Shown here piece after piece: positions 1 through 25,927 of a stretch of DNA of 64,000 nt (positions are counted from its first letter, which is position 1; every line of letters starts with the position of its first letter). Both the position numbers and the translations under genes were made by a program. Under the pieces are notes generated by a model. That model ran no database searches, was not told the origin of the DNA, and was given only the letters and a program-made list of their open reading frames with translations. This stretch comes from an uncultured Aliarcobacter sp. (GTDB lineage Bacteria > Campylobacterota > Campylobacteria > Campylobacterales > Arcobacteraceae), in assembly GCA_963664305.2 (NCBI GenBank), contig CAXXLV010000001.1, forward strand, positions 160,001 through 224,000, read 5' to 3'.

Positions 1-422
1 TTTAAATAAGATATTTTCATAAGATACTTATAAATTAATTTTTGAAAAAGAGGTAGTTTCTTCATTCCTGATAAAGTACTTGCTTCTCTAAATGTAATGT
101 ATTCTATTTTTAATCCATATGCTGAAATACCTATTAAAATATTAACATCTCTAATTACAGAAAGGATACATGAATTAGTATTATCCTTTAAATATTTTCT
201 TAATTTAAAAACAACATATCTACTTCTTGAAATATTTAAATCAATGATATTTACACCTGAGTGTACAAGATTTAAATAACTACCTTTTTTTTTAAAAAGA
301 ACTAAATCAACTTCATGACCAATTGAATTATAATAATTTGCTAAATTAACTGCTACTTTTTCAGCACCCCCACCATTTAAACTAGGAGATATAATTGAAA
401 TTTTTTGGTTATTTTTTTTCAT
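1..422 (-). CDS. GT4-family glycosyltransferase, N-terminal part (runs off the left edge)
   Basis: Not in the ORF track; hand-translated from ATG at 422, which overlaps the upstream TGA as ATGA: MKKNNQKISIISPSLNGGGAEKVAVNLANYYNSIGHEVDLVLF. GGGAEK is the typical GT4 N-terminal motif. Confidence 0.85.
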   Translation of the reverse strand, partial: MKKNNQKISIISPSLNGGGAEKVAVNLANYYNSIGHEVDLVLFKKKGSYLNLVHSGVNIIDLNISRSRYVVFKLRKYLKDNTNSCILSVIRDVNILIGISAYGLKIEYITFREASTLSGMKKLPLFQKLIYKYLMKISYL

Positions 423-1639
423 TTTAATAACTTTTCAACTTGTTGTATTAGCTTTTTTATATTAAACTCCTCAAAATTAACTACAAAACCTTTTGTATTT
501 TTTTGAATTTGCTCAATTGCTTTTATAGTACTTTCAATTGTATAATTTGAAACAATTTGATTATTGTTTTCTAATAACTCAAAAAGTTCTCCACCATCTG
601 AAATATGCCAAATAGTCTTTTTTAAAGCCATATAATCAAAAATTTTAGAACCAAAAGCATGGGAATTATCTAAAGAATTAATAGAAAGGCAAATATCACA
701 CTGACTTATCTTATTATATATCTCTGATTGAGAGACTAAAGCATTAAATTCAAAATATTTTTCAATTGTTTTATAATATTTACTATTGCTAAACTTATTT
801 AGATTGATATTTGAATATAGGACAACTTTTAAATTACTAAAAGAATTTTTTTCTAATGTTTCAGCAATTAGTTCTAAAGCTTTCATTCTTGACTGAGCAA
901 GTCTTCCTGCATATAAAATAATAATTTCATCTTTAGAATTTATTGATGCAGTAGTTGAATAGTCATCTACATCATATCCATTATAAATAGTATTTATTTT
1001 ATTTGCACTTTCAGGATATAAATTTTGTAAATTTTTTGTCATATCTTCTGTAACACAGAGAATTTGATTTGATAATTTTACAACTTCTGTTTCTTTTTTA
1101 AGAGATGATTCCTTTGCTTTAAAAGAAGATAATGCTTTTAAGGTATAGGTTAAATTATAATTCCAAGGATCACGATAATCTACAATCATATTCAAAAAAG
1201 GATTTTCACTTTTTAATATTGCGGCAGAGTATAAAAAAGAGTGTGGAGGACCAGTAACAATAAGATTTTTAATACTGTTTTCTCTTATTAATTTATTTGC
1301 TTTTTCAAAAAAATCATCACTATTATTATCTGCAATATCTAATTTATTTAATATTTTATTTCTAAAAATAGTAACTACTTTACAAAATACTTTTTCTAAA
1401 AAAGTTTTATTTGTTTTTAGACATTTAGTAGGATATGAATCTTCAAAATAACTAATCTTTATATTCTCATGTTTTACATCATGATTCCAATTTACTAAAT
1501 CCTTATAAGGATATTTACGAGCTAATACAAATACCTCATAACCAGATAAAGCTAAATACTTTGAAAATTTTGCCCATCTTCTTGTCCCAATATTTCCCAT
1601 AGGTGGAAATTTATAAGCTACGATTAATACTTTCTTCAT
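419..1639 (-). CDS. GT4-like glycosyltransferase
   Basis: IVAYKFPP..G..R, TGPPHS, DYRDPW, IYNGYD, YAGRL and SKIFDYMA motifs. Confidence 0.85.
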   Translation of the reverse strand: MKKVLIVAYKFPPMGNIGTRRWAKFSKYLALSGYEVFVLARKYPYKDLVNWNHDVKHENIKISYFEDSYPTKCLKTNKTFLEKVFCKVVTIFRNKILNKLDIADNNSDDFFEKANKLIRENSIKNLIVTGPPHSFLYSAAILKSENPFLNMIVDYRDPWNYNLTYTLKALSSFKAKESSLKKETEVVKLSNQILCVTEDMTKNLQNLYPESANKINTIYNGYDVDDYSTTASINSKDEIIILYAGRLAQSRMKALELIAETLEKNSFSNLKVVLYSNINLNKFSNSKYYKTIEKYFEFNALVSQSEIYNKISQCDICLSINSLDNSHAFGSKIFDYMALKKTIWHISDGGELFELLENNNQIVSNYTIESTIKAIEQIQKNTKGFVVNFEEFNIKKLIQQVEKLLK

Positions 1640-3480
1640 ATCTCTTCTTTAAAAAATATTTTTTTAAACTGATTTTTATTCATATATCTAATTAACTGTT
1701 TAATTGATAAACTCATATCTAAAACTTTTGGATTGGTCTTTAAATCATTTTTGTCCATATTTGAAAGGAACCAATTTTTCAGATTACCTCTAAACCAGTA
1801 ATCCTCTGGCAATAACCACCCCATTTTATCTTTTCTCCAAACAATATTATCTGGTAATTTATTCTTAAAAGCGAGTCTTGCTATATATTTTGTCCAACCA
1901 TTATGCATTTTATAACAAGAAGGTATACTTGCTAGAAACTCTACTAAACGATAATCCATAAAAGGCATTCTTGATTCAATTGAAAATGCCATTGATGTAT
2001 GGTCAGCATAGTGAATTAATGTTACTAAAGATGAATGTAGATCAAAAGCAAGTTGTTCATTTAAATTTCTAAAAGGATACTTCTTCTTTAAAATGTTAGA
2101 TACTGTAAAAATAGTTAGTTTCTTTCCAATAATATTACTTAATAGTCCAACAAAAAAACTAACTAAAATTGTTCTTTTTGAAAAAGGCATTTTCAAAAAA
2201 GCATATGTTTCTTTAAATAAATCTATAAAACTTAAAGAGATAAAATAGTTTTTTAAATATCTACTATATCCTGCTAATTGTTCATCTGCTCCTTGTCCAT
2301 CTAATGTTACTTTAACATTAGTAGAAGATACAAGTTTAAAAGTATGCCAGCTTGACATAAGAGTTGTTTCTGGTGGATTTTCCATCATATATATAACTTT
2401 TTTATATTCAGAAGGGATATTTTTTTCTAATGGTTCTATTTGATTAGAATTTACATTTAAAAATTCTGCGATTTCATTTATAAACTCACTTTCATCACAA
2501 TGTTGAGTTCCTGAAGTATGATATATGCTTGAAAAAGTTTCTTGAAGTTCCTCATTCCCTTGCTCTTTTAATAGCTTGTTTACTAAATAAACTATTGAAC
2601 TACTATCTAATCCTCCAGATAAAGCAGAACCAATTTTAACATCTGCTCTTAATCTTACTCTAACTGCATCTTCTAGTAAAAGATAATACTTTTCAGCATA
2701 TTCTTTTGCTTTTTCTAAACTAAACTTTTCTACTGAAAGGTTAGGTTTAATTTCCCAAAACTTTTTTATTTGGAAATTAAAAAATAGTTCATCAATTGTT
2801 CCTAAAAAATAAGATGAGAAATCAAAACGATATATATTTTTAAAAGCTGTTTCTTTTAAATATTCTTTAGGACCTTCTTTTATATAACTATTTAAATAAG
2901 ATTCATTTTCTCTTTTTAAAACTGAAGGATGCTCTAAAATTGACTTTATCTCAGAAGCAAAAATAAAGTTATTTTCATCTTTATAATAATATAAAGGTTT
3001 TATTCCAAACCTATCTCTTGATATAAAAAATTTCTCTTCTAAAGTATCATAAAGAACAAAAGACCACATTCCATTAAATTTATTAAGACAATCTTCTTTC
3101 CATGCATCATAAGAAGCAATTATTACTTCTGTATCTGTATTATTAGAGAAATCATATCCTAAAGAGACAAGTTCTGATTTTAATTCTAAGAAATTGTATA
3201 TTTCTCCATTATATACAATCCAATATCTATCTTGATAACTCATAGGCTGATGTCCAGCAGTTGATAAATCTTGAATAGATAATCTTCTATGTGCAAAAGA
3301 AAAGTTTATATTAGATTCGATAAATTCTATTTTATCAGAAGATATATTATTAGTACAATTTCCTGCAATTAAATAACCTTCATCATTAGGACCTCTATGA
3401 TGAATTTTATCATTCATTTTTTTTATAGTATTTATATCTATTAATTCATTTCTTTGAATAATCCCTACTATTCCACACAT
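1636..3480 (-). CDS. asnB: Asparagine synthase (glutamine-hydrolysing)-type amidotransferase, glycan-modifying
   Basis: N-terminal MCGI, HRRLSIQDLS, NGEIYNF, LSGGLDSS, DGQGADE, SIESRMPFMD; located inside a glycan operon. Confidence 0.9.
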   Translation of the reverse strand: MCGIVGIIQRNELIDINTIKKMNDKIHHRGPNDEGYLIAGNCTNNISSDKIEFIESNINFSFAHRRLSIQDLSTAGHQPMSYQDRYWIVYNGEIYNFLELKSELVSLGYDFSNNTDTEVIIASYDAWKEDCLNKFNGMWSFVLYDTLEEKFFISRDRFGIKPLYYYKDENNFIFASEIKSILEHPSVLKRENESYLNSYIKEGPKEYLKETAFKNIYRFDFSSYFLGTIDELFFNFQIKKFWEIKPNLSVEKFSLEKAKEYAEKYYLLLEDAVRVRLRADVKIGSALSGGLDSSSIVYLVNKLLKEQGNEELQETFSSIYHTSGTQHCDESEFINEIAEFLNVNSNQIEPLEKNIPSEYKKVIYMMENPPETTLMSSWHTFKLVSSTNVKVTLDGQGADEQLAGYSRYLKNYFISLSFIDLFKETYAFLKMPFSKRTILVSFFVGLLSNIIGKKLTIFTVSNILKKKYPFRNLNEQLAFDLHSSLVTLIHYADHTSMAFSIESRMPFMDYRLVEFLASIPSCYKMHNGWTKYIARLAFKNKLPDNIVWRKDKMGWLLPEDYWFRGNLKNWFLSNMDKNDLKTNPKVLDMSLSIKQLIRYMNKNQFKKIFFKEEI

Positions 3481-4739
3481 TAAATACTTTCCTTAATATT
3501 TTTTACCTTGATATCAAACTTTATGTTTAATTTATTTTCTAACTCTTCCATATTTGAATAAGAAAACTTTCCATATTCAGCTAAAATTTTTTTTCTATAA
3601 AAATATTTTAACTCTTTTTTATCATTTTCATTAAAATAAAAATAGGTCTCATAATCTTGATTCAATCTATCATAAAAAGTAGAAGAAGCATAGGTAACTG
3701 CTACTTCTGCTTCACTTAAACTTGAAACATTTTCATCACTTGTAGGACAATGGATATACTCACTACTTTCATAGTAAGGAGGTATTATTTGATAATTATT
3801 AAATAATTTCTTTTCAAAAGGATGAAGATATACACATAAATGTAACTTATTTAATGTTGCGTAACTTTTTAAAAATGTGATAATTTCATTTATCTTTTTC
3901 CATCTACTATTATCAATATATTTACTTTCTTTAATTCCTTCAATATCATTTGTCTGTTTTAGTCCATCTATTCTTGCCCACTCTCCTGAAGAATAAAATG
4001 CTAAATCATATTTAAAATTACTAACATTTTTATATTCAATATTCATTTCATTTCCCCATAATTGGACAGAAGTATTTTCCAATTTCAACCATTTTATTTT
4101 TTTGTAATATTCAAATTCTTTTAATTGTCCTTTACTACATAATATAATTGTAGTATTTCTATAACAATCATATCTACATGTATTATAAACATAAGAACTA
4201 GACCAACAATAAAAAAAGTTAATACTTTTATCTCTTAATGTAACATACAATAGTAGTAATATATGTTCTAATTTTTGAACATTAAATAGATATACATTTT
4301 TTCTTTTTGAATTAAATAAATTAAAGGTATTCATTGAAAATGAAATTAAAAAATTAAAATTTATTTTCTGACTAAAATACAAAAGCAGAAAAGGAATAAT
4401 TAGCCATAAAGAAAAATAGATTAAAATAAATATAAAAAAACTATAAAAAGAGTTTATTAATATACCTTGAGTATAAACAATATTATCAATTTCTAAAGGT
4501 TCATCTATATATTTATTGATAAATTGACTTCTTTCAATACCTTTTTTATCGATATAAATATTTTCATTTTTATTAAATTGTTTAAATTTTACATATTTCA
4601 AAGTAATAAAAAGAACATAAATATATCTTAAAATATTAAACTGTTTTTTAGGAATAGATTTTGTCAAAATAATCTTGTATAACCTGACTTTATTTATACC
4701 AAATAATTTTTTAATCAATATTTGTACTATTTTATTCAA
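3480..4739 (-). CDS. Hypothetical glycan-locus protein; candidate nonulosonate (Pse) transferase
   Basis: 419-aa ORF with TTG start and an N-terminal hydrophobic stretch. The C-terminal YLHPFE and YASST resemble the HP and S-S/T motifs of bacterial sialyltransferases. Confidence 0.5.
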   Translation of the reverse strand: MNKIVQILIKKLFGINKVRLYKIILTKSIPKKQFNILRYIYVLFITLKYVKFKQFNKNENIYIDKKGIERSQFINKYIDEPLEIDNIVYTQGILINSFYSFFIFILIYFSLWLIIPFLLLYFSQKINFNFLISFSMNTFNLFNSKRKNVYLFNVQKLEHILLLLYVTLRDKSINFFYCWSSSYVYNTCRYDCYRNTTIILCSKGQLKEFEYYKKIKWLKLENTSVQLWGNEMNIEYKNVSNFKYDLAFYSSGEWARIDGLKQTNDIEGIKESKYIDNSRWKKINEIITFLKSYATLNKLHLCVYLHPFEKKLFNNYQIIPPYYESSEYIHCPTSDENVSSLSEAEVAVTYASSTFYDRLNQDYETYFYFNENDKKELKYFYRKKILAEYGKFSYSNMEELENKLNIKFDIKVKNIKESI

Positions 4740-4831
4740 AAACTTTCCTATTTAATCTTGATAAGTAATTTTATTTAAAAATAAGTTTATTTTAATACCC
4801 AAACTTATTTTTAAATTAATGTAGCATAGAA

Positions 4832-5455
4832 TTAACTCTTTTTCTTTAGTAAGAACCATGTAATATCATCTTGGGGGAAGTTATTATCTCTATGATATAC
4901 AAATCCATAATCAACTAGCTCTAAATCATTATATTTTTCTAACATTTCGCCTGCAAAATCTCTTTTAAATAATTTATTACTATGTCCTCTATAACCTATT
5001 GTTACAGGACTTGGATTATAATACTCAGCAATTAAAATATACTTATTTGAAGTTTCATATAATTTTTCATACACTGTTTGTAAAAAATCGGGATTTATAT
5101 GAATTAATACACCTTTTATAAAAACAAAATCTCTTTTTCTATCAGGTTCAAAGTTTAAAATAGACTCATGGTAAATTTTATTAATGAAATCATGTTTTTC
5201 TAACTCTGCAACTGCATTTTTATTAATTTCAATTGCTGAAATATCTATTGAATTAAATAATTTACTTATTGCATGTAAATTCAATCCAATATTAGAACCA
5301 AATTCGATTACACTCTTAACATCATCACATTTTTTAAATATACTACTAAATAAAGGAATATTATTTTTTATTAAATCCTTATTATTTCTTGCTATATATT
5401 CATTTCCCCATTCTTCTGATGCCCAAAATTCTTCTTGTTCTGTTTTATACTTCAC
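4832..5455 (-). CDS. Pseudaminic acid biosynthesis-associated methyltransferase
   Basis: TEQEEFWASEEWGNEYIARN, EFGSNIGLNL, GVLIHINP, YRGH..LFKRDFAGE, FPQDDITWFL. Confidence 0.9.
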   Translation of the reverse strand: MKYKTEQEEFWASEEWGNEYIARNNKDLIKNNIPLFSSIFKKCDDVKSVIEFGSNIGLNLHAISKLFNSIDISAIEINKNAVAELEKHDFINKIYHESILNFEPDRKRDFVFIKGVLIHINPDFLQTVYEKLYETSNKYILIAEYYNPSPVTIGYRGHSNKLFKRDFAGEMLEKYNDLELVDYGFVYHRDNNFPQDDITWFLLKKKS

Positions 5456-6491
5456 TATTTTCTCCTATTAAATTTAATCTATCTGCGAATTTATAATCTT
5501 TCTCTGCTTTTTTACCTAAAATAGTTTTTAGATATTTCGGAGGTAAACCATAACCAGGTCTTACACTTTTTATATTATCTTCAGTAAAGACTTCACCTTT
5601 TTTTATATCTTTAGAGACATATAAACTTCTTGCGAATTGTCTTGAGTTTTTCTTTTTTTCAGTTAAAGTATAATCTACTTTTCCTATCAGCTTTTCTGCT
5701 TGTCTTACTGCTGCTATCATCTCTTTAAATTCTTCTTTATCTAAAGAAAAGTCACAATCAGGACCACCAATAGATTTATCCAAAATAAAATGTTTTTCAA
5801 TCACTTTAGCACCTAAAGTAGTTGCTACAATAGGAGCAGTAATACCTAAAGTATGATCAGAAAAACCTGCTATTACACCAAATGTTTCTTTAAGATTAGG
5901 AATCATTGCTAAGTTTGCATCTTCTAGTAAAGCAGGATAAGCACTGGTACATTTTAATAAAACAATATTATTATTTCCTACTTTTCTACAAATATTTACC
6001 ACATCTTGTATTTCATCAATTGTTGCTATCCCTGTCGAAATAATTATAGGCTTTCCTTTTGATGCGGTATATTCAATAAGGTTATAATCAGTTATTTCAA
6101 ATGAGGCAATTTTATATGCGATAGGATTAAATTGTTCTAAAAAATCTACTGCTATTTTATCAAAAGGAGATGAAAAAATATCAATATCAATACTTTTTGC
6201 ATAATCAAAAAGCTCTTTATGCCATTCCCAAGGAGTTAAAGCTTCACTATAAAGTTCATACATAGATTTATTATCCCAAAGTGTTCCACCTTTTATAATA
6301 AAATCATCTCTTTTACTATTTAATGTTAAAGTATCAGCTGTATATGTTTGAAGTTTAATTGCATTTGCACCAATATCTTTTGCTGCTTTTATTGTTTCTT
6401 TAGCTAAATCAATATTACCACCATGATTAGCACTAAGCTCTGCAATAATATAAGTAGAACTACTTGATAAATCAAAGTTACCAATTTTCAT
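5445..6491 (-). CDS. pseI: Pseudaminic acid synthase
   Basis: IAELSANHGG, KLQTYTADT, KIASFEITD, LKCTSAYP, GFSDHT, IEKHF, and a C-terminal SAF domain (VRPGYGL). Confidence 0.93.
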   Translation of the reverse strand: MKIGNFDLSSSSTYIIAELSANHGGNIDLAKETIKAAKDIGANAIKLQTYTADTLTLNSKRDDFIIKGGTLWDNKSMYELYSEALTPWEWHKELFDYAKSIDIDIFSSPFDKIAVDFLEQFNPIAYKIASFEITDYNLIEYTASKGKPIIISTGIATIDEIQDVVNICRKVGNNNIVLLKCTSAYPALLEDANLAMIPNLKETFGVIAGFSDHTLGITAPIVATTLGAKVIEKHFILDKSIGGPDCDFSLDKEEFKEMIAAVRQAEKLIGKVDYTLTEKKKNSRQFARSLYVSKDIKKGEVFTEDNIKSVRPGYGLPPKYLKTILGKKAEKDYKFADRLNLIGENSEV

Positions 6492-7117
6492 TTACTTGCC
6501 TCTTCTATTTTTAAAATATATTTTTTCCCTTCTTTATAAAAAAAAGCAGGATAACTGTCATTATCAACTATTCTTAAAAGATTAAATTGTTGATCAATAC
6601 TTTTATGTATATCTAATTCACTATCTTTACTATCTCTTTTTTCATAAAAAGTTTCAATACCTTCTTGTTTTACAGGTTTTTTATATTCATCATATTTATC
6701 TAAAAAATCTATGCACATCTCTATTATAAAACTTGCTTGCTTTCTTCTTAGTTCTTCATTTAACTCAAAACCTGTTAAAGAAAGAGTTTTTTTCATATAA
6801 ATATCTCCGTTATCCACTCCAGAAGAAGCTTCAAACATAGAAAAAACAATATTGTTTTTTCCTTCTAAAATTTGCCAAAACATAGGAGCCCAACCTTTAC
6901 CTAACGGTAAATCACTAGCGTGAATCACAATATTATGTTTGGATAATAGATATTCTTTTGGTATTATTCTATGATAACTTAAGATAAATATTACATCATA
7001 TGAAGACTCTATTTCTTCATGCCTAAAAAACAAGCTTGCATTTTTAAGTATATTCTGTAACTCTTTAGCATAATCAATAAACCATTGATTTTCTGAAGTT
7101 AAAATAGCAACTTTCAA
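6488..7117 (-). CDS. Sugar N-formyltransferase (Fmt-like)
   Basis: NIVIHASDLPLGKGWAP and GVDNGDI formyltransferase motifs; TTG start. Confidence 0.8.
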   Translation of the reverse strand: MKVAILTSENQWFIDYAKELQNILKNASLFFRHEEIESSYDVIFILSYHRIIPKEYLLSKHNIVIHASDLPLGKGWAPMFWQILEGKNNIVFSMFEASSGVDNGDIYMKKTLSLTGFELNEELRRKQASFIIEMCIDFLDKYDEYKKPVKQEGIETFYEKRDSKDSELDIHKSIDQQFNLLRIVDNDSYPAFFYKEGKKYILKIEEASK

Positions 7118-7119
7118 TA

Positions 7120-7833
7120 TTATTCCTTATTTTCTATTAATGATAAAATTTCTTTTGCAATAAAAAAATGACCTATTTCATTAATATGCATTCCATCAGC
7201 TAATAATGCATCTTGATTTGATTTTGTAAATTCATATAAATCTATAATATATATATTCTCATAATCTTTTTTTAATTTATTAAATATTTCATTGTATTTA
7301 TCTATATTATATAATATATTTGTATATTCATTTTGAACAGTTAATGAAGGGTATGCTATATTAATAAAAAATATTTTTTCACAATTTGAAGTTTTGTTTA
7401 TATTATCAATAATTTTTTTTAAATTTTTTTCAAATTCATCTATTTCAACCATAACATTTTTACGAATTTTTGTTAGGAACTTTCTTTTTTTTCCTAAATA
7501 AGATACAAACTTCTGAACAATTTTTCCTACTAAAGGAAAAAAAGTTAAAAATTCAAATATTTTTTTCTCATATTTATTAAAAATTCTAGGTGCACAATCT
7601 ACTATACCCAATTGAATAATATAAACATTAGCATTTGTAGCTAAAATATGATTATTTATTGCACTTGAAGAAGAACAAGTTCTTGATGTATTAGAAGGTG
7701 TTCCATAATTAATAACATATACATTATCTAATGAATTTTGTAAAAAATACTGATATATATTTTCTAATTGTATATTCTCTAAAAATCTTATTTGACTTAG
7801 AGAATCACCTATAATAACAACTTTTTTATTCAA
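7120..7833 (-). CDS. SGNH/GDSL hydrolase-family protein
   Basis: IIGDSL (block I), QLGIVD (block III-like), DGMHIN (block V). Confidence 0.8.
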   Translation of the reverse strand: MNKKVVIIGDSLSQIRFLENIQLENIYQYFLQNSLDNVYVINYGTPSNTSRTCSSSSAINNHILATNANVYIIQLGIVDCAPRIFNKYEKKIFEFLTFFPLVGKIVQKFVSYLGKKRKFLTKIRKNVMVEIDEFEKNLKKIIDNINKTSNCEKIFFINIAYPSLTVQNEYTNILYNIDKYNEIFNKLKKDYENIYIIDLYEFTKSNQDALLADGMHINEIGHFFIAKEILSLIENKE

Positions 7834-7891
7834 CTAATCCCCCGTATAAATTTATATAATAACATAAACTCTATTAAAATTTATTATTATT

Positions 7892-8830
7892 TTAGTTTTT
7901 GAACCTAAATACTTTTCTATGATTTTTTTTATTAATAATTAATTTTTTTATATAAAGAGATAATTTATTTCTATTAAACCTTTTTATTGCAAAAAAATTC
8001 TTTTTTCTTACATAGTTAAATATTTCTTTTTGATTATCTGCTGTTTTAATGGCTATAAAAGGTATTTCTAAAAAGAAAACTTCGTTTAATATTACACTTG
8101 GAGTTACAATTGCAATATGACTTTTTTTTATAATTTTTGCAATCTGATTTGAATTTACATATAAATTAATCCATTTTTTATTCTTACAATATTGTATCAA
8201 TTCATTTAGATTTTTATTTGCATTAGTTGTTACAAGATTAACTTCTATCTTTTTAAATTTACTTAATACTTCTAATATTTTAATATTAATATTACTATGA
8301 TCTGCACCACCCATTCCAATAAATACTTCAATATTAGTACTTTTATAGATTTTCTTTTTTTCTGAAATAAATTCTTCTCTTAAAAGAGTATATTTACTTC
8401 CACACCTGAGTTCACAATTTGGAGGTACTAAATTCTTATATTTACTTTCTTTTGCATTTATATTATGATTTAATAAAATATCACAATAGTGTTTTTCATA
8501 AGTATCATCAAAAGAGAGTATTATTAAATGTGGAAAAATAAGTTTTAATTCTTTTTCAAAGTTAAAATCAATTCCATAATGGTCAATTATAAGTAAATCA
8601 ATTTTCAATTCAATAATTAAATCTTTTAATTTAGAAAAACTATTATCTTCTAAAACTTTTAAGATATAACCTTCTTTTATAATTTTATAATTTAAATTTC
8701 CAATTAAATCACATGCCGCAAAAAAAATAGTATTATTTTCTGTTTTATATTTAGAAGCTAATACTAAATCTCTCATTAAATGTCCAGACCCAATATAAGA
8801 AGAGGAATCTGAACGAAAAAGAATATTCAT
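7892..8830 (-). CDS. pseG: UDP-2,4-diacylamino-2,4,6-trideoxy-beta-L-altropyranose hydrolase
   Basis: FRSDSSSYIGSGHLMRDLVLA, IDHYGI, DILLNHN, LLREEF, MGGAD, ADNQ. Confidence 0.9.
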   Translation of the reverse strand: MNILFRSDSSSYIGSGHLMRDLVLASKYKTENNTIFFAACDLIGNLNYKIIKEGYILKVLEDNSFSKLKDLIIELKIDLLIIDHYGIDFNFEKELKLIFPHLIILSFDDTYEKHYCDILLNHNINAKESKYKNLVPPNCELRCGSKYTLLREEFISEKKKIYKSTNIEVFIGMGGADHSNINIKILEVLSKFKKIEVNLVTTNANKNLNELIQYCKNKKWINLYVNSNQIAKIIKKSHIAIVTPSVILNEVFFLEIPFIAIKTADNQKEIFNYVRKKNFFAIKRFNRNKLSLYIKKLIINKKNHRKVFRFKN

Positions 8831-8831: not shown

Positions 8832-10607
8832 CTACTTTTCTTTAATTTTTGTGTATAAATTTAAATCATTTATTAATTTTTCATCAGTTTTATATTTTAA
8901 AGTAAGATGAGAATTTAAACTTGAGATTTCATTATTTTTATCTAAAAAATCAAAAAGTCTTTCTAATGAAAACTCTAAATTATTTTCACTAAAATACTCT
9001 TCTATTTTATTAAACATAAGTAAATCTTCATCATAATCTAGAGTTAGTCTGTAATCTCTAACTAAATTACTTGGTAACTCAACAAAATTTAAATGGAAAT
9101 ACTCTGCATTATTTTGAAAATACCATGTCATATATTCTGAATACTTTGCATTAGGAAAATATTTTTTAACTTTTTTTAGTGCACTTGTATTAATAATTTC
9201 TAGATTTGTTCCTACTGCTGCATCTTTTGCCGTTGTATAATCTGCTCCTAATTTAAAATGTTCTGCTAATAGAAAATCAAAAATCTCTGAACTTATATAA
9301 GGCATATCTGCTGTAATTCTTACAATTACATCTATTTTTAAAGTATCAATTACATCTAAATATCTTTTGATTACATCGTCTGGATCACCTGTATGGAAAA
9401 CCACACTACTATTGTATGTATAGTTTGATAATTCTTTATCTTGTTCATTATCTGAAGTAGCTAAAATTACATGATTTAAGTTATCAAACTTCATTGTATT
9501 TTTTAAACACAATTCAACTGAAGATAAATCTCCAATTTTTAAAAGTGCTTTTTGAGGTAATCTTGTTGACTTTAAACGACAAGCAATTACTGCTGCAATA
9601 TTAGCTTTTTTAAAATCTTCTTTCTTTAAAGTTTCATTTTCACTTTTATCAGTATTTAAAATATGATATGTTTTTAATAACTCTTTTATTTCATGAGATA
9701 ATAAACCTTTTTTATTTGTTCTTCTAAAAATAATATCTTCATCAAAATTAATTAAACTATATTTTTCTTTTTTTGATTTTAAAATAGGAACTTGATAAGT
9801 TGTATTAATATAGTTTTTTTCTGCTTCATTTAAAAAAGGGCTATCTAATAAACTATAATATTTTTTTTGTTTTCCAATCAAATTTTTATAATCAGAAATT
9901 ACAACACTAGAAAAATGATCATATTTTGTTTCTAATTGACTATGCATAATATGTTTCTCAATATAATTTGCACCATTCATCATTGCAATTAAAGGTAAAA
10001 GAATTGCATCTTCGTCTTTTCCATTTATATGGTCTGCAAAAACAATTTTATTAGCGTAGTTTTCTTTTAAGTAGCTGATTTTTGATAAACCTGAGTCTTC
10101 TAATTTTGTAGGATAAGCTTGAAAACCTACTTCAAGAAGAATTTCATTTGAGTTTAAAGAATTAAATCTATTTAAAATACTATCAATATCTTCTTTTTCT
10201 CTACCAGCTATATTAATAATTAATTTCTGAGAAGATAAATCTATTTTTTGTAATTCTTTAAAAATAATATTATTATCTAAAATAGATGTTTGTAACTTAA
10301 TTCCCTTTACTTTACTTAAGTTCTCTTTTATTATTTCAATACCATATTCATCAAATAGATCAATCCATACATCTTTTGTTTCAAAAGCTTTGTCAATTAT
10401 TTTTTTCCACTCATCTTTATTAAAAAACAATTCTGTATATACCTGATACCATTCATAATCTTCAGTTGCGATAGTGTTATATTTAAATGGCTGAAATTTT
10501 ATTCCAAAGTTATCTTCTTTTTTAAATTCTTCATACTCTTTTAATAAAGAAAATAAATAGTTTATATCTCCTGCATGAGTATTTGCTACTTCTAAAATAT
10601 TATACAT
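8832..10607 (-). CDS. Fusion of an N-terminal NeuB-like (nonulosonate synthase) domain and a C-terminal SpsF/PseF-like cytidylyltransferase
   Basis: N-terminal: LEVANTHAGD, KFQ, AYPT, FADH, IEKH, DHFSS. C-terminal: IACRLKSTRLPQKAL, VRITADMP, YRLTLDYDEDL. Confidence 0.8.
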   Translation of the reverse strand: MYNILEVANTHAGDINYLFSLLKEYEEFKKEDNFGIKFQPFKYNTIATEDYEWYQVYTELFFNKDEWKKIIDKAFETKDVWIDLFDEYGIEIIKENLSKVKGIKLQTSILDNNIIFKELQKIDLSSQKLIINIAGREKEDIDSILNRFNSLNSNEILLEVGFQAYPTKLEDSGLSKISYLKENYANKIVFADHINGKDEDAILLPLIAMMNGANYIEKHIMHSQLETKYDHFSSVVISDYKNLIGKQKKYYSLLDSPFLNEAEKNYINTTYQVPILKSKKEKYSLINFDEDIIFRRTNKKGLLSHEIKELLKTYHILNTDKSENETLKKEDFKKANIAAVIACRLKSTRLPQKALLKIGDLSSVELCLKNTMKFDNLNHVILATSDNEQDKELSNYTYNSSVVFHTGDPDDVIKRYLDVIDTLKIDVIVRITADMPYISSEIFDFLLAEHFKLGADYTTAKDAAVGTNLEIINTSALKKVKKYFPNAKYSEYMTWYFQNNAEYFHLNFVELPSNLVRDYRLTLDYDEDLLMFNKIEEYFSENNLEFSLERLFDFLDKNNEISSLNSHLTLKYKTDEKLINDLNLYTKIKEK

Positions 10608-17626: not shown

Positions 17627-18205
17627 TCACTCTTCTATTAAAATTAAATTATCATTTTCTATTTTATATTTACTATTATCAAAGCTATCAATAGCAATAT
17701 TACTTTCATCAAATTTTAAAGTATTTCCAGCTTTTGAAACCCAACCAATTTGACGTGCAGGAACTCCTACCATAAGGGCATATGGCTTAACATCTTTATT
17801 TACAACTGTTCCACTTCCAATAAGAGCATATTCACCAATAGTTACACCACAAACAATAGTTGCATTTGCTCCAATAGAACATCCTTTTTTAAGAATTGTT
17901 TTTTTAAACTCTTCACGTCTAACAATAAATGCTCTTGGATTTGTAACGTTCGTAAAAACCATTGAAGGTCCTAAAAATACATCATCTTCTACTTTTACAC
18001 CTTCGTAAATAGATATATTGTTCTGAACCTTTACACCATTTCCAATATTTACTTTAGGTCCAACAACGCAGTTTTGTCCAAAAGAACAATTACTTCCAAT
18101 ATTTGAACCACTTAAAATATGTGAAAAATGCCATATTTTAGTATCATCCCCAATAATTACATTATCATCTACATAAGATGACTCGTGAGCAAAATAAGAA
18201 GCCAT
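17627..18205 (-). CDS. wbpD: Hexapeptide N-acetyltransferase, WbpD/WlbB type
   Basis: [40 protein letters not shown]. Confidence 0.88.
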
Positions 18206-19173
18206 TAGATTAATACCTTTTTACAGAAAGGATGATATTCCCCATTTAATCCAAGAGGAGTTAGTTTTCTAATAACTGAAACAATATTTATAGAATTTCT
18301 AGCTTCCTCAAGTCCGAATCCACCACCATTTAAGATATGTTCATAAGATCTTGTATGTAAATCTGTAAATCCTTCTGAGAATTCAAACTCTTCACCATCA
18401 ACTGTTATACTTCTAAAAGTTGTTTTTCCACTAGCTTTTATATCTTCTGGAATATAATTGTAATTTACACTTAAAAACCATCTTACATTTGCATTTTTAA
18501 GTTTCATAAATCCTGCATTTGCATCTGCTTCTTTTAAATGAACAATATTTTCCTCTATAGGTCCAAATATCCAAGATAACATATCAAAAAAGTGAACACC
18601 AATATTTGATGCAATTCCACCTGATTTTGCTTCATCACCTTTCCAAGAAACAAAGTACCATTTTCCTCTACTTGTAAGATAAGTTAAATCTATATCATAA
18701 ACTTTATTTGGATTTTGTTCTAATTCTTTTGCTATTTTTTCTTTTAATGCAATGATTGAATCATGAAGTCTTAGTTGTAAAATATTATAAACCTTTTTAC
18801 CAGTTTCTTCTTCTATTATTTTTAATTGATCGATATTATGTGGATTTAAAACTAATGGTTTCTCACATATTGCATGAGCACCATTTTTAAGTGCAAATCT
18901 TATATGAGAATCATGTAAATAATTTGGAGTTGTAATTCCAATATATTCTATTTTTTTATTACCATCTCTATGCCATTTATCAACAAATCTATCAAATCTT
19001 TCAAACTCAGTAAAAAAATGAGCTTGTGGAAAGTTACTATCCATTATTCCAATACCATCATAAGGATCAAGAGCAGCAACTAAATCATTCCCTGTTTCTT
19101 TTATCGCTTTCATATGTCTTGGTGCAATATATCCTGATGCACCTATAAGTGCAAAATTCTTTTTATTTGGCAT
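18205..19173 (-). CDS. wbpB: UDP-HexNAcA 3-dehydrogenase, WbpB/WlbA type (Gfo/Idh/MocA)
   Basis: [45 protein letters not shown]. Start set at ATG 19173 after RBS GGGAG. Confidence 0.88.
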
Positions 19174-19174
19174 T

Positions 19175-20422
19175 TTATAATCTCCCATCGCTATCTTTTA
19201 AAATACCTTTGATATCATAAATAACTTGATTTTCATTTTCAAAAGTTAAAGTTTTATATTTATCATGTGATACTGCCATCACAACTGCTTCATAATCATC
19301 GAAATTAACATCATTATCTAAATTTAAATTATATTCATGTCTTACTTCTTCTTTATCTGCCCAATAATCTGACACAGTAATATCACATCCAAATTCTTTC
19401 AATTCTTCTATTACATCAATTACTCTACTATTTCTTATATCAGGACAATTTTCTTTAAAAGTAATTCCAAGAACCAATACCTTTGAACCTTCTATCTTAT
19501 GACCTTTTTTTATCATAAGTTTTATAACCTGATTTGCTACATAAATTCCCATATTATCATTTAATCGTCTTCCAGCTAGAATAATTTCAGGGTTATAACC
19601 TATACTTTGAGCTTTATGAGTTAAATAGTATGGATCAACACCAATACAGTGTCCTCCTACAAGACCTGGTCTAAATGGTAAAAAGTTCCATTTTGTTCCA
19701 GCAGCTGCTAACACATCATTTGTATTGATTCCAAGTTTATTAAAAATGATTGCTAATTCATTTACAAAGGCTATATTTATATCTCTTTGAGAGTTCTCTA
19801 TAACTTTTGCAGCTTCTGCAACTTTTATAGTAGGTGCTAAATGAGTACCTGCTGTTATAATACTAGCATATAGTTCATTCACTTTTTTACCAATTTCAGG
19901 GGTACTTCCTGATGTTACTTTAAGTATTTTAGTTACAGTATGTTCTTTGTCTCCTGGATTAATTCTTTCTGGACTATATCCACAGAAGAAATCAATATTA
20001 AAAGTCAATCCTGAAAATTTCTCTAGAACGGGAACACAGTCTTCTTCTGTAGCTCCTGGATAAACAGTTGATTCGTAGATAACAATATCATCTTTTTTAA
20101 GCACTTTTCCTATCGTTTCACTAGCTTTTATAAGAGGAGTTAAATCTGGTCTTTTATTTTTATCTATTGGTGTTGGAACGGTTACTATGTAAATATTACA
20201 GTCTTCTATATCTTTTGTATCAAGAGTAAATTTCATACCATTTTTTATAGCTTCTTTTACTTGATTTTCTGATAATTCTAAAGTTCTATCATAACCACTC
20301 GACAATTCATCAATTCTCCATTTTGATATATCAAATCCTACTACTTGATATTTTGAAGAAAATGCATGAGCTAGAGGAAGCCCAACATATCCAAGACCTA
20401 TTACACAAATTTTATTTCCCAT
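19175..20422 (-). CDS. wbpO: UDP-N-acetylhexosamine 6-dehydrogenase (WbpO/TviB type)
   Basis: [49 protein letters not shown]. Start at ATG 20422 after AAGGAG. Confidence 0.85.
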
Positions 20423-20423
20423 T

Positions 20424-21458
20424 TTATTTAACTCCTTTAATATCATTTATATACCAATTCAAAGATTCTTTTAATCCATCTTCTAAACAATGCGTAGGTT
20501 CATATCCTAAAAGCTTTTTTGCTTGATCTATATTTGCATTCGAATGCCTTATATCTCCAACTCTAAAATCTCTATAAATCGCATCCTTGATTTTTAATTC
20601 TGGTAATTTTTCTTCTAAACCTTTTTTTATTGCACTAAAAAGATTATTTAAAGTTTCTCTGCCACCTGCAGCTATATTATAGGCTTTCGCAAAAGCTTCA
20701 GTATTTGTTGTGATTCCGGCTAATATATTTGCCTGAACAACATTATCAATATATGTAAAATCTCTACTTGTCTCACCATCTCCATTTATAAAAACATCTT
20801 CATTGTTTAACATAGAAGATATCCACTTTGGCATTACAGCAGCATACGCACCATTTGGATCCTGTCTTTTTCCAAAAACATTAAAATATCTAAGTCCTAT
20901 TGATTCAAATCCATAACACTTATAAAAAACACCCATATAAAGTTCATTTACATATTTGGTAACTGCATAAGGAGATAATAAATTTCCAGTTTTATTTTCT
21001 ATTTTCGGTAATTCTAAACTATCTCCATAAACTGAAGAGCTAGAAGCGTAAACAAATCTTTTTACGCCATTATCTTTAGAAGCTGTAAGCATATTTAAAA
21101 ATCCACTTACATTTGAAGCATTCGAATTTATTGGATTATCTATTGATCTAGGAACAGAACCAAGTGCTGCTTGATGAAGGACAATATCTATATTCTTTGT
21201 TATTTCAACACAAGTGTTATAATTTGTAATGTCACCTTCTAGAAAATTAAAATTATTCCATTGTTCTTTTGATATAGAATTTTTTACATGTTCTAAATTG
21301 TGTTTATATCCAGTCGAAAAATTATCAAGCCCAACTACTTTTTGATTTAATTGTAAAAGTGTTTCAATTAAATTCGAACCAATAAATCCCGCACAACCTG
21401 TAATTAACCATGTTTGTGGATTTTCTACTAGTTTTTGTTTTATCTCATTATATCTCAT
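20424..21458 (-). CDS. wbpP: UDP-GlcNAc(A) 4-epimerase (WbpP/TviC type)
   Basis: [53 protein letters not shown]. Confidence 0.88.
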
Positions 21459-22495
21459 TATATCTCATTCTTCTTACTTTTATACCCATCTGGATTATTG
21501 CTTTGCCATCTATAGCTATCAACACACATATCTTCCAAACTTCTTTCTGCTTTCCATCCAAGTACTTCTTTTGCATAAGATGGATTTGCATAACAAGTTG
21601 CTATATCTCCTGCTCTTCTATCTACTATTTTATATGGAATTTTTTTTTCACTTACTTTTTCAAAAGTTTTTACCATATCAAGTACACTATAACCTATTCC
21701 TGTTCCTAAATTTACTATTAATGGTTTCATTATATCTTTTGAGTTTAAATAATCTATTGCTTTTACATGTCCATTTGCCAAATCAACTACATGGATATAA
21801 TCTCTCACACCTGTTCCATCATGTGTATCATAATCTGTTCCTAAAATATTTAAATATTCTCTTTTTCCAACAGCTACTTGAGAAATATATGGCATTAGAT
21901 TATTTGGTATTCCATTTGGCTCTTCACCTATCAGTCCACTTTCATGTGCTCCAACTGGATTAAAGTATCTTAAAATTACAATTTTAAAAGAGTTATCTGA
22001 AAGATATAAATCTTTTAAAATTCTTTCTATCATATATTTACTTGTACCATATGGATTTGTTGTATTTCCTATTGGAAAATCTTCTTTTATAGGATTAGAT
22101 TTAGGATTTCCATATACAGTTGCTGAACTTGAAAAAACTATTTTTTTACAATTAAATTCTTTCATAACTTCAAGAAGTCTAATAGTTCCAACAATATTAT
22201 TATCATAATATTCTAAAGGTTTTTCTACTGATTCTCCAACAGCTTTTAATCCAGCAAAGTGGATAACAGAATCTATATCATATTTCTCAAATACTTTTTT
22301 TAAAAGTTCTTTATCTCTTATATCACCCTCTTCTAAAGAAATAGATTTATTTATAATTTTTTCTACTCTTTTAATACTTTCTTTTGAAGAATTTGATAAA
22401 TTATCATACACTACAAAATCATAACTCGCTTCACTTAAAGCAATAAGAGTATGAGAACCTATATATCCAGCTCCACCTGTTATTAATATAGACAT
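21458..22495 (-). CDS. galE: UDP-glucose 4-epimerase
   Basis: [56 protein letters not shown]. Confidence 0.95.
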
Positions 22496-22549
22496 TTATT
22501 TAACTCTTTATTTTGCAATGTATTTTCCTAATTAAAATTTTAGTTGGAT

Positions 22550-22558
22550 ATTATATCA
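22550..22558 (-). promoter_or_regulatory. Extended -10 sigma70 promoter (TGATATAAT) for the glycan operon
   Basis: Minus strand reads TGaTATAAT about 55 bp upstream of the galE ATG. Confidence 0.6.
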
Positions 22559-23076
22559 AATCAAATTACTCTTTTTTGACTTTTTTTAATCAAAAAAGTA
22601 ATTCAGATCTAAATCTCAATTAAATCTTATTTATTGTGTATTTTTGTAACTTTTGTGATTTATAGTTAATATTGTATTCAAATAATGCTGATAATTTGGT
22701 TATTTTTTATATTTATCTCAGACTTTATAAAAATAAAATTAGAGATAAATAGCTAATTATAATTACAATAAAAATTCAATGTAATATATCAAATTCCATT
22801 TTCATAGATTTATTTATCCTACAATAAAATATAATAATATAACACAAAAGACTCATAAAAGACTTTCTTTTCATTTTTTATATGAGATTAAATAAAAATT
22901 TTATCCAATAATTGTTACTTGTTTCACAAAAAAAGTTATTTATCAATCATTTTGTAGTTATAATTTAACTTTAATGACTCAAAAAATGGAGAAATGCAAC
23001 ATAAAAAGATGGAATATGAAACTATAAAAAACCCTAAAACTCCACAAAAAAGACTATAAAAAAATCACCTCAATTT

Positions 23077-24786
23077 TTAATTCCTCCTTATCCTATATTC
23101 ACTTTTTTTCTCAATTCCACTAGAATAAACAATACTGTTTTCATAAATCCCCTCACAAACCTCAATAGCCTCTTTAGTACTTAAATTCAATTCTCTTTGT
23201 AAAAAATCAATTACATTTTTTGGTTTTTGTTTATTTGTAGTGTTATCTATTTTATTATCTTCTGTTATTATAAAATTTGAAATATCAAGTTTATAATTAT
23301 CTTTTGCAAATTCAAGGATTAAATTTGCATCAAGTTTTTCTTTTAGTTCTTGCAAATTTATTTTAGAAGTTAAATCTTCATTTTGCAAATTTACCTTTTG
23401 TTGTTGAATTGGTGATTTTGCTCTTTTAATTTCTATTTGATTTTCTTTTTTATTTTTTAAAATTAAAGCAGCAATTTGTCTATTTGCTTCAGTTACAAAC
23501 TCTTCATTTCCACTTGGTTTTATATTTTCTAGTTTCCAGTTTTTTGCAAGGGCTATTTCAATCATAATTTTTACTTCTTCTTGTATGTTATTTGAATTAA
23601 AATTAGAGATTATTTGATCTTCTAAATCAACAATTTTAATATTTTTTGAGAAGTTAGTAATAATTACTTGATTATCTATTTTTTTAATATAATAGCCTTG
23701 TAGTTTATCTTTAATTAGATAATCATAGTGTTTATAAAAAAGTTTTTGTTGATATGATTGATAAGTAAAAGAGTTTATATTATCAGTAGTTTTTTGATTT
23801 TCACAAGTATAAATATCTTGCAATAGTTCTTTTGATTTTTTACTTTTTCTTTTATAGATATTTTCAATTCTAGTTTCATAATAGCTTAGTAAAATATCTT
23901 CTAACTCTTTTTTTGATTTATGTCTTGGAAATATTCTATTTTTATCATCATTTAGAATAAATCTTGAAAAATCTTTACCATTTAGATTTAATGAGTTTGA
24001 TTTTTTATTTCTTTCTTGTAGGTTTAATATTTTTATATATTTATATGTTTTACTTCCAGCTATTTTAAAATCTATATTTTCTTTTAGCTGTAGGTTATTT
24101 TGTAAAAAGTATAAAAGTTCATCTGGTGTTTTTATATCTTTTAAAAGTTCTATCCAATTAGCTCTAGTAATTGCTATTTTACTTATTATTTTATCTTCAA
24201 GATTATTTTCATCTTGGATATTTGAATTAGTATTAGTTTCATCATTTTCATCTTTTCTAGGAATTTCAAAGTTATATTTTTTACAAACATAGCTTTGTAA
24301 AACATCATCTAAAAAAGAGTTATTAAAAAATGGTGTTCTTAATTGAGTATCATCAACTGGATTATATTTAGCAATTGCAATATGAATATGTGGAAATCTT
24401 TTTTTATTTTTTTCATTTATTTGAATTTTTGGCAAGTGAGCTTCAGCATATGCTATTACTTCGTTTTCTAAATCATAGCCACTTGTGTGATGTTTTAAAT
24501 ATATTAAAACTAGTTCTTTAAAAAGTTCATCTCTTTTTTTATCATCATCTATTTTATTTAATTTATCTATATCTTTTTGAGAAAAAGATAGTGTTATATG
24601 AATATAGTTATCTTTATAGTTTTTATATTTATTTAGATATTTTTCTGTTTGTTTAAAAGTTTGAAGATTTCCATACAGTGGAACTACTTTATCTTTTTGA
24701 TCTCTTGAGTAGATACTATCTTTTCTAGCACCTGTTATTAAATAATCTGCAAATCCTTCTTTGGCTCTTGAAATTCTAGCTATCAT
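23077..24786 (-). CDS. HUH relaxase/mobilisation nuclease (MOBP-like) with a C-terminal LPD7-like domain
   Basis: Motif I Tyr (FADYL), motif II YIHITLSFS, motif III AEAH...PHIHIAI. MIEIALAKNW...SGNEEF resembles LPD7. Lies directly downstream of mobC. Confidence 0.8.
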   Translation of the reverse strand: MIARISRAKEGFADYLITGARKDSIYSRDQKDKVVPLYGNLQTFKQTEKYLNKYKNYKDNYIHITLSFSQKDIDKLNKIDDDKKRDELFKELVLIYLKHHTSGYDLENEVIAYAEAHLPKIQINEKNKKRFPHIHIAIAKYNPVDDTQLRTPFFNNSFLDDVLQSYVCKKYNFEIPRKDENDETNTNSNIQDENNLEDKIISKIAITRANWIELLKDIKTPDELLYFLQNNLQLKENIDFKIAGSKTYKYIKILNLQERNKKSNSLNLNGKDFSRFILNDDKNRIFPRHKSKKELEDILLSYYETRIENIYKRKSKKSKELLQDIYTCENQKTTDNINSFTYQSYQQKLFYKHYDYLIKDKLQGYYIKKIDNQVIITNFSKNIKIVDLEDQIISNFNSNNIQEEVKIMIEIALAKNWKLENIKPSGNEEFVTEANRQIAALILKNKKENQIEIKRAKSPIQQQKVNLQNEDLTSKINLQELKEKLDANLILEFAKDNYKLDISNFIITEDNKIDNTTNKQKPKNVIDFLQRELNLSTKEAIEVCEGIYENSIVYSSGIEKKSEYRIRRN

Positions 24787-25116
24787 TTAAAACTCTTTAT
24801 CTAAAATTGGATCTAATTGATTTTCAATAATGATAAGTTTATTGATTAGATTTTTATAGTTATAAGAATCAAGTTTTTTTAATTGGATTGAATAATTTAA
24901 TCCATGAGTTAATTGATTAATGTTTGTACCAATTTTATTTATATTCCAAATTAACTCTTTTATATCTTTTTTATTTGATGGTTTTACATTAATATTTGAA
25001 GATTCAATATATTTAATTAAAAACTGTGTGCTATTCATATTAAGAGCTTTTGCTTTAAAATCAAGTAATTGTTTTTGTTGTTGTGATAATCTAAATTTAA
25101 ACATTTTATCTTGCAT
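24787..25116 (-). CDS. mobC: MobC-family relaxosome accessory protein (RHH)
   Basis: N-terminal KFRLS...KAKALNMNSTQFL (ribbon-helix-helix) and the MobC motif INKIGTNINQL. Confidence 0.85.
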   Translation of the reverse strand: MQDKMFKFRLSQQQKQLLDFKAKALNMNSTQFLIKYIESSNINVKPSNKKDIKELIWNINKIGTNINQLTHGLNYSIQLKKLDSYNYKNLINKLIIIENQLDPILDKEF

Positions 25117-25258
25117 TAAAATCCTTTACACATTTGAAAGTTAGTAAGACCCTCAAAGACCAACTGATTTGGTTTAAGACCTAGACACAACTTACTTAAG
25201 ATTCCATATGTCTTGATTGTCCATTTTTTGTCTTATTTTTGATACATTCTTCTTCCTT
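25117..25258. promoter_or_regulatory. Candidate oriT / mob promoter region
   Basis: Non-coding gap directly upstream of mobC with three AAGACC copies and an ACCAA-n5-TTGGT hairpin. The call rests on position only. Confidence 0.4.
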
Positions 25259-25528
25259 TTATTTTAAATCTAAAAGTTCCTTTGCTTTATCTGTTGAGAT
25301 TACCTCACCTGTTTCTAATCTAGCTACTAAACCATCTTCTTCTAGTTTCTTAACAAATCTAGACACAACTGGCTGTGCTAAAGTTAATCCAAAACTTATC
25401 TCTGTGATTTTCTTAGCTCCATGGTCTATTAAATAACACATAATAGCTATATCTCTTACTGTTGCTCTTGGGTCATACTCTTTATCTAGTCTCTGACATA
25501 AAACTAATAACTCCCTTGCCTTCATCAT
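25259..25528 (-). CDS. Small MarR-like winged-helix DNA-binding protein
   Basis: ITEISFGLTLAQPVVSRFVKKLEEDGLV HTH-wing pattern; RBS AAGGAG. Confidence 0.75.
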   Translation of the reverse strand: MMKARELLVLCQRLDKEYDPRATVRDIAIMCYLIDHGAKKITEISFGLTLAQPVVSRFVKKLEEDGLVARLETGEVISTDKAKELLDLK

Positions 25529-25757
25529 AATATTCTCCTTTATTATAAAAATGAAAGTAATATTAAAAAATAGTGACTTAAAATTAAATAGAAAAGGATT
25601 GTTTTTGTATTTAAGGGAATTCGGTAATTGTTAAAAAGATTGTATTTTAATATTAAAAAGTTATTGTTTTTGGAAATAAGCTCTGATTGATTTTTGTACT
25701 CGCATTTGTACTTTCGGATTTTCCGTTTTAGAAAAACCTTCAAGAAGCTCGATTTTA

Positions 25758-25803
25758 TGGTGGTCATGAAGGACTCGAACCTTCGACCACTCGGTTATGA
25801 GCC
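25758..25803 (-). repeat. att-like direct repeat: 3' half of tRNA(CAT)
   Basis: TGGTGGTCATGAAGGACTCGAACCTTCGACCACTCGGTTATGAGCC matches 25928-25974 except for one missing G. Confidence 0.92.
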
Positions 25804-25927
25804 AGTCTTAAAAATAGGCTTGTTATCGTACTTTTAATAAACAATTGAAAGACATAAAAATATCATAATGTACCTTCCAATGTACCTAAAATTAAATAAT
25901 ACTTGTTGTTGATTGTTCATAATTAAG

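Follow-up and report, generated by a model that had tools for sequence, protein, structure and literature searches.

We analyzed a 64,000-nucleotide stretch (hereafter the window; G000:C1:160001-224000) of the two-contig, 2.78-Mb genome of an uncultured Aliarcobacter sp. (G000). It contains a large glycan locus that, judged from its sequence, lies within an insertion bounded by predicted attachment (att) sites and linked to a relaxase gene; the same frame is found in a second species (G046) and is decayed in G000. We interpret this 44-kb island as a decayed integrative mobilisable element (IME) that carries an O-antigen locus as cargo and whose interior has been swapped by homologous recombination, a reading to which we assign a probability of about 0.6. 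To move now, the element would likely need an integrase and conjugation machinery from outside. The original prediction, made from the window alone, had viewed the locus as cargo of a tRNA-anchored mobilisable island acting as a serotype-swapping cassette: the att-bounded insertion agrees with the cargo, as does G046, in which another glycan set is framed by this mob module and distal end, whereas the G000 copy does not appear to be a working cassette.

Relatives are named by handle and come from a collection with one genome per species. The genus set comprises 44 genomes (G000 and 43 others), the family set used in the search for the candidate origin of transfer (oriT) comprises 183, and the tRNA site was compared in the 29 relatives for which the pyrF-tRNA region was retrieved. 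Markers left of window base 1 are cited as G000:C1 coordinates.

The island lies between copies of a tRNA 3'-end core

The tRNA-Met and tRNA-Gly genes are 4-82 bp apart in 16 of the 29 relatives, versus 46 kb in G000. The features that delimit the intervening DNA are as follows.

26011-26101, minus strand: tRNA-Ser(GCT), called by ARAGORN; core chromosome, upstream of the insertion site.
25928-26004, minus strand: tRNA(CAT), the putative integration target, called Met by ARAGORN; 13-bp core in its 3' end at 25935-25947.
25804-25927, minus strand: short remnant between the tRNA and its duplicate, in which GGTACATT is directly repeated; probably what is left of a deleted tandem element.
25762-25803, minus strand: 42-bp duplicate, identical to the tRNA 3' half, with the second core copy, 171 bp from the tRNA copy; likely the attL of the glycan-bearing element.
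G000:C1:141716-142089, minus strand: attR-like end, about 18 kb left of window base 1; third 13-bp core at C1:141716-141728.
G000:C1:140074-141714, minus strand: segment past the distal core, in which a 168-bp piece from the 3' end represents another pglF allele (90% identical), together with a second wbpA/tviB-like gene.
C1:139865-139941: tRNA-Gly, following the second wbpA/tviB-like gene.

The gene at 25928-26004 may encode an Ile2 tRNA rather than tRNA-Met. At the other end, 375 non-coding bases downstream of pglF close with a copy of the 13-bp core in tRNA orientation, 44 kb from the tRNA and just past the last glycan gene. The order within this stretch is sequence shared with the end of an element helicase gene, two pairs of GTACCG arm-type repeats and the third core; a 44-bp piece near its start matches the end of the DnaB-like helicase gene in the G046 element. 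The core has three copies in the 2.78 Mb (the tRNA, the 42-bp duplicate and C1:141716), whereas chance would give 0.029 copies in a whole genome and 0.00024 in this stretch on the strand concerned. The exact core is present in 13 of the 44 genus genomes, with more than one copy in G000 and G046 only, and the reversed control gave none. The paired GTACCG motif has a single occurrence in the genome, 47 bp inward from the distal core, and is nearly identical to a repeat between the tRNA and a P4-like integrase gene in G045, at the tRNA-proximal end of the integrase-bearing element; G017 has a similar arm pair at this position, and in G023 one follows a duplicate. Same-orientation cores with arm-type repeats, as at the attL and attR of an IME, suggest an att function for these ends.

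The original prediction had read, downstream of tRNA(CAT), an att-like duplicate, a helix-turn-helix (HTH) gene, mobC, a relaxase gene, a gap and the glycan genes on one strand, and this order is confirmed on the minus strand. The 42-bp duplicate as the island's distant end was rejected, as it lies merely 171 bp from the tRNA; the left end is about 18 kb past the window. The statement that the element has no visible left end holds for the gap at 22496-23076, where a BLAST search of the tRNA against the genome found, as stated, no tRNA fragment, but a left end does exist outside the window, at C1:141716-142089. Scanning leftward, as had been proposed, recovered the further core copy at C1:141716 and no integrase.

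The pglF fragment and the second wbpA beyond the distal core are probably left over from a glycan locus that stood there earlier. The pglF 3' fragment is duplicated at G000:C1:141547-141714 and, in G046, at L047:14699-14872, with the same start within the gene and different neighbours; this shared start may mark a recombination or integration hotspot inside pglF.

A second species carries the frame around a different glycan set

G046, whose pyrF is 97% identical to that of G000, has at the same site, in order, the tRNA, an integrase gene, toxin-antitoxin genes, a second integrase gene (both P4-like), a helicase module, a StbB-like gene, mobC and the relaxase gene (products 90% and 85% identical, respectively, to those of G000). 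A 476-bp junction follows, 81.5% identical to that at 22496-23076 in the window, and then wzz, galE, a GDP-fucose/dTDP-sugar-type set, wecA, rmlC, pglF, the arm (88% identical over 376 bp) and the core, which lies 165 bp before tRNA-Gly. The G046 copy has the sequence features of an IME. Only 4 of the 35 glycan genes of G000 have a counterpart in G046 at 70% identity or more, all at the ends of the locus, and each of six relatives shares 3 to 10 of the 35 at that level; the locus thus has the conserved ends and differing interior of a replacement island. Both arrangements that the original prediction had proposed to look for in relatives, empty sites and other glycan loci with the same mob module, were found, in the 16 relatives above and in G046.

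Both junctions of the locus were also detected in wastewater run X3, in which one contig joins galE to the relaxase gene, one joins pglF to the arm and one spans the arm and the core; the three contigs may or may not derive from one strain. Screening metagenome contigs with the relaxase returned one locus of 2.9 kb, too short to show cargo, among the matches listed (592 pattern matches). A joint at 1509-2048 in run X14 was not counted, being explained by ordinary pglF mapping across two local pglF copies, and absent or slight coverage in the remaining runs was given no weight.

The same mob module adjoins defence genes as cargo in G019 and G045; its neighbours there (L035 and L050 in G019, L037 in G045) are BREX, AbiE and restriction-type genes. 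Just past the island in G046, the tRNA cluster is interrupted by a type III CRISPR-like cluster (Cmr2, RAMPs, a CorA-like protein, an RT-Cas1 fusion and a Card1-like protein; L047:26-13569).

The mob module retains a relaxase and MobC

The mob module of the window comprises the following features.

25259-25528, minus strand: 89-aa MarR/ArsR-type winged-helix protein, assigned by Pfam.
25117-25258, minus strand: the earlier oriT candidate; similarity to other mob modules ends about 12 bp upstream of mobC.
24787-25116, minus strand: predicted MobC/NikA relaxosome accessory protein, 109 aa (Pfam PF21983, PF05713).
23077-24786, minus strand: relaxase-like protein, 569 aa, with an LPD7 domain, assigned by homology and motifs.

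The 569-aa protein has a sub-threshold LPD7 hit as its sole Pfam match, and no relaxase family of Pfam or NCBIfam matched it. It is 30% identical over residues 1-252 to the protein encoded after mobC on IncI2 plasmids of type MOBP, with 680 matching plasmid records, and 36% identical over residues 1-439 to a mob protein of Helicobacter cetorum pHCD. Residues Y15, H117, H133 and H135 are invariant in 24 aligned homologs (of 139 homologs), and we take a tyrosine with three histidines to mark HUH relaxases. Foldseek returned weak matches to the relaxases MobM, TraI and TrwC (best MobM, E 0.057) and no match at E 0.001; a hidden Markov model search with the aligned relaxases as query gave 0 matches among solved structures. 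We accept the open reading frame (ORF), which is intact, as a predicted relaxase gene; the IncI2 homology, the invariant Tyr and three His, and the MobC/NikA Pfam match supply the relaxase and accessory protein typical of an IME, and bear out the mobC and relaxase genes of the original prediction. Close homologs of the relaxase (76-85%) are present in 3 of the 43 other genus genomes, and the named ones belong to Aliarcobacter/Arcobacter species. The winged-helix protein found no homolog in the compared loci by tblastn.

The G000 copy probably cannot move on its own

The original prediction had placed an oriT at 25117-25258, from which the neighbouring locus might be transferred in Hfr-like fashion. 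We rejected this candidate: the stretch has no homolog in the genus, and the upstream sequence conserved in the mob modules is absent from it. A query with 25110-25765 found nothing in the 43 same-genus genomes and, across the 183 family genomes, no more than a weak match of 65 bp and another of 47 bp. Instead, an 85-bp palindrome-rich element upstream of mobC is conserved in G046, G019, G045 and contig L072, and on sequence grounds is the best oriT candidate. It has no match anywhere in the G000 genome, in which a different oriT may be present.

The remaining machinery is likewise missing. The genome has eight matches to the integrase family PF00589, none of which falls in the window or the island (C1:140-186 kb); no integrase remnant was found in six frames within the island, and four P4-like integrases from related elements gave no tblastn match in the genome at E 1e-8. 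Searches for an integrase to the left of the window, within the island or able to act in trans were negative. Profiles for VirB4, VirD4 and VirB10 (PF03135, PF02534, PF03743) had 0 matches in the genome, and one marginal PF10412 match lies far off at C1:873 kb. The earlier remark that the window contains neither an integrase nor a type IV secretion system (T4SS) therefore stands, and the T4SS hallmark families are absent genome-wide.

These absences weigh against an element active as it is, with the relaxase nicking an oriT at 25117-25258 and the locus leaving as a circle or by Hfr-like transfer. Intact relaxase and MobC frames, the conserved catalytic residues and potential helpers bearing VirB4 in 6 of the 44 genus genomes speak for such activity, which the lack of the island integrase, the conserved oriT-like element and the T4SS genes nevertheless renders highly improbable in our view. 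A candidate helper integrative conjugative element (ICE) is found in G019 (L039-L040), where a paralogous relaxase, 41% identical, is part of an element that also carries VirB4 and an integrase-like gene.

The locus occupies several chromosomal sites in the genus

The tRNA-Met/Gly site is an insertion hotspot: 13 of the 29 relatives carry an insertion or rearrangement there, including metal-transport islands, integrase islands with 45-47-bp tRNA duplicates, Rep3 plasmid remnants and one case in which tRNA-Met was not called. A Rep3 replication gene adjoins this tRNA-Met in G047 (L068:16959-17945) and G057 (L070:1862-2848), which suggests an integrated plasmid.

Loci of the same type lie between dnaB and DNA ligase in G019, G013, G016 and G058, and beside the ligase gene in G007, G022 and G008. 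This site, the commonest O-antigen site of the genus, is empty in G000, G041, G043 and G056, and retains one leftover wbpA-like gene in G046. Elsewhere, the G003 locus begins right after tRNA-Glu(TTC) (L109:4251-5406), the G056 locus ends beside tRNA-Leu(GAG) (L055:13689-15341, L095:8263-12147) with ParA-like and IS3-type remnants upstream, and the loci of G010, G017, G044, G024 and G009 have still other neighbours. The locus is found at no fewer than four chromosomal positions in the genus, not at the fixed position of a replacement island. Besides G046, G056 is the only one of the 44 genomes with a long arm match: it carries the same pglF end and 279 bp of the arm. Its pglF is 91.6% identical to that of G000 (background 84.5%), the figures for G046 are 93.4% (89.2%), and the other eight are within 2 points.

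As a separate observation, the lone wbpA/tviB-like gene at the dnaB-ligase site of G046 (L104:14503-15747) encodes a protein 96% identical to that of G000:C1:140074-141318.

Origin of the island

Several results weigh against a decayed IME with swapped cargo. (i) The sequence past the distal core is not a tRNA CCA end in either G000 or G046, so the distal site is not a textbook attR. (ii) In G043 and G041 a glycan locus with wzz as its last gene abuts the same tRNA-Gly, and neither genome has a relaxase match, the arm or an extra core; either the locus was in this gap before the element arrived, or these may be fully decayed islands. (iii) An approximately unbiased (AU) test did not reject vertical descent of the G056 pglF (p-AU 0.202), and support for a G000-G046-G056 grouping is weak (64/57). 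(iv) Identity between G000 and G046 at the cassette ends is 87-93%, near the housekeeping background of 89.2%. (v) The 5' leader common to G000 and G056 is also weakly present (71-77%) at native-site loci, and we rejected it as a mark of mobility on that account. (vi) No circular form was found among the junctions listed in the metagenome runs, which consist of contigs only. The original prediction had named as damaging a glycan locus beside the tRNA without the mob module, combined with the lack of a distal att site or integrase; G043 and G041 show the former, and a distal att-like site exists in G000 and G046.

In G043 and G041 (L057, L060, L076), the ribH-nusB-pyrF-tRNA-Ser-tRNA-Met block is inverted, and tRNA-Met faces away from the glycan locus at tRNA-Gly.

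An alternative history would have the O-antigen locus reach the tRNA-Met/Gly gap earlier, by ordinary rearrangement or with an older element that can no longer be seen. On this view, the mob module and the distal att-like site would be remnants of later insertions into the hotspot that happen to flank the locus, and types would be exchanged by homologous recombination alone. The loci of G043 and G041, the disturbed site in 13 of the 29 relatives and the AU result are all in line with this history, as is the combination of conserved ends and interior turnover, described as typical of replacement islands in the portion of PMC4898812 used here. It accounts less readily for a distal core in tRNA orientation with the fitting arm repeats on its inner side, for element-derived DNA abutting both ends of the locus (the relaxase gene upstream, helicase-end sequence downstream), and for both junctions being common to G000, G046 and run X3. 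Moreover, a locus at the dnaB site and an empty tRNA site are kept in G019, a genome grouped with G000 and G046 at a support of only 67-75. We regard an earlier arrival as the main alternative, though a less likely one.

What can be read directly in the genomes is that DNA is inserted where relatives have an empty site, that it has two ends and an unbroken relaxase frame, that the dnaB-ligase site is vacant, and that G046 has the same frame with other contents. From there, we propose a series of steps for the decayed IME. An element with a P4-like tyrosine integrase, of the type seen at this tRNA in G045, G017 and G046, would have integrated at the tRNA 3' end, and an O-antigen locus would have recombined into it between the relaxase gene and the attR end. 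The copy at the dnaB-ligase site would have been lost, and the interior later exchanged by homologous recombination via the conserved ends (galE on one side, wecA-rmlC-pglF on the other). G000 would then have lost the integrase, the partition-like genes and the oriT, leaving an element that could be mobile only in cis or with help in trans.

A bolder proposal, which we offer as a tentative possibility, is that an Aliarcobacter lineage of relaxase-bearing, tRNA-targeting elements carries complete O-antigen loci between species: the locus would land at a tRNA, the resident locus would be deleted and repeated arrivals would replace serotypes. If so, serotype replacement would be a site-specific, conjugation-driven exchange of whole serotypes, which would explain the presence of the locus at different tRNAs across the genus, and an earlier replacement of this kind would have left its scar beyond the distal att in the form of the pglF fragment and second wbpA.

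Content of the glycan locus

The locus comprises 35 ORFs and extends 18 kb left of the window. Within the window, 19 of its ORFs lie on the minus strand between 419 and 22495, and most of them match sugar-pathway families of Pfam or NCBIfam; the wbp labels are our own reading of Pfam families.

22496-23076, minus strand: relaxase-to-glycan junction, 581 bp; locus leader and first codons of a deleted wzz.
1-22495, minus strand, first part: galE, wbpP-like, wbpA/tviB, wbpB-, wbpD- and wbpE-like genes, an O-acetyltransferase and a PglK-like ABC flippase.
1-22495, minus strand, remainder: pseB, pseC, a NeuB-cytidylyltransferase fusion, pseG, a GDSL protein, a formyltransferase, pseI, a Pse methylase, an asnB-like amidotransferase and a GT4 protein.
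G000:C1:142090-160000, minus strand: glycosyltransferases, a second O-acetyltransferase, two WecA-like initiators, wzy-like, wzx, a UDP-GlcNAc 2-epimerase, rmlC and a final pglF/wbpM-like dehydratase.

Of the proteins typical of O-antigen synthesis, the locus encodes two WecA-like proteins, Wzx, a Wzy-like protein and the PglK-like flippase, and it contains the sole PF01943 match and 2 of the 3 PF00953 matches of the genome. Its predicted O-antigen-type product may instead be another surface glycan. No Wzz family match was found in the G000 genome, in which the galE leader at 22496-22530 is joined to the start codons of wzz; the wzz of G046 and of G056 is short, at 193 aa. Among the pse genes, 8832-10607 encodes a 591-aa fusion of a NeuB-like protein and a cytidylyltransferase, besides the canonical pseI.

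GC content is uninformative for the island (24.8%, versus 26.9% for the genome). Elsewhere in the window, a high-GC segment at about 47000-52000 with tRNA-Ala and tRNA-Ile is consistent with an rRNA operon.

Comparison with known systems

The comparisons below draw on portions of the cited papers. No published description of this arrangement was found in the literature as covered by titles and abstract openings, and the combination of Arcobacter, relaxase, genomic island and glycosyltransferase returned none.

In gene order, the module resembles those of IncI2 (MOBP) plasmids and H. cetorum pHCD, in which mobC is followed by a relaxase with an LPD7 domain. The G046 element has a StbB/ParA-like gene upstream in place of the IncI2 traL. 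Unlike the IncI2 module, the one described here is chromosomal, lacks mating-pair genes and encodes a much shorter protein.

IMEs, decayed cis-mobilisable elements (CIMEs) and tandem accretion are reviewed in PMC5704250. The island resembles the elements treated there in its tRNA 3'-end target, short end repeats, relaxase with accessory protein, lack of a T4SS and tandem accretion with decayed elements. The G000 copy differs from an IME in having neither an integrase, of which G046 has two, nor the conserved oriT-like site; since it lacks the integrase, we do not file it as an IME. Like a CIME, it has kept att-like ends and lost integration genes; unlike a pure CIME, it has not lost its transfer genes, as the mobC and relaxase frames are intact. 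The cargo is a further difference: in G000 it seems to take the place of the locus native to the host, and the word polysaccharide has 0 occurrences in the main text of the review.

ICEs of Bacteroidetes that carry capsular polysaccharide loci (PMC6907783) offer a parallel in cargo, as whole multi-gene surface-polysaccharide loci travel on integrated, conjugation-linked elements. Those examples are self-transmissible and reside in hosts with many capsule loci, whereas G000 is a member of Campylobacterota without a T4SS whose dnaB-ligase site is empty.

Within the same family, Arcobacter butzleri RM4018 has the islands ABGI1-3 and the O-antigen locus ab0661-ab0697 (PMC2147049). It shares with G000 repeat-bounded integrase islands, one of them at tRNA-Leu, and a hypervariable wbp-type O-antigen locus; in RM4018, however, islands and O-antigen locus are separate, and the portion of that paper used here gives no island gene pointing to a plasmid origin. 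A 2026 survey calls O-antigen-type genes of this kind scattered (PMC13691151).

O-antigen clusters are usually described as occupying one site and changing by homologous recombination, the vehicle for 25-40 kb of new DNA often being unknown. The replacement islands of Alteromonas (PMC4898812) and the gmhD-rjg cluster of Vibrio cholerae (PMC9484750) are examples at fixed sites, and the locus studied here resembles them in its conserved end genes, wholly different interiors and homologous recombination. Those clusters keep one site, whereas here the locus is found at dnaB-ligase, tRNA-Met/Gly, tRNA-Leu, tRNA-Glu and other positions, and in two genomes inside a tRNA-type additive island. A locus off its commonest site, within att-bounded, relaxase-bearing DNA in two species, provides a concrete and testable candidate vehicle by which surface types could be exchanged. 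Such exchange would bear on phage range and on serotyping in a genus that counts emerging food- and water-borne pathogens among its members. The integrase-bearing G046 copy is a better object for a test than the decayed copy of G000.

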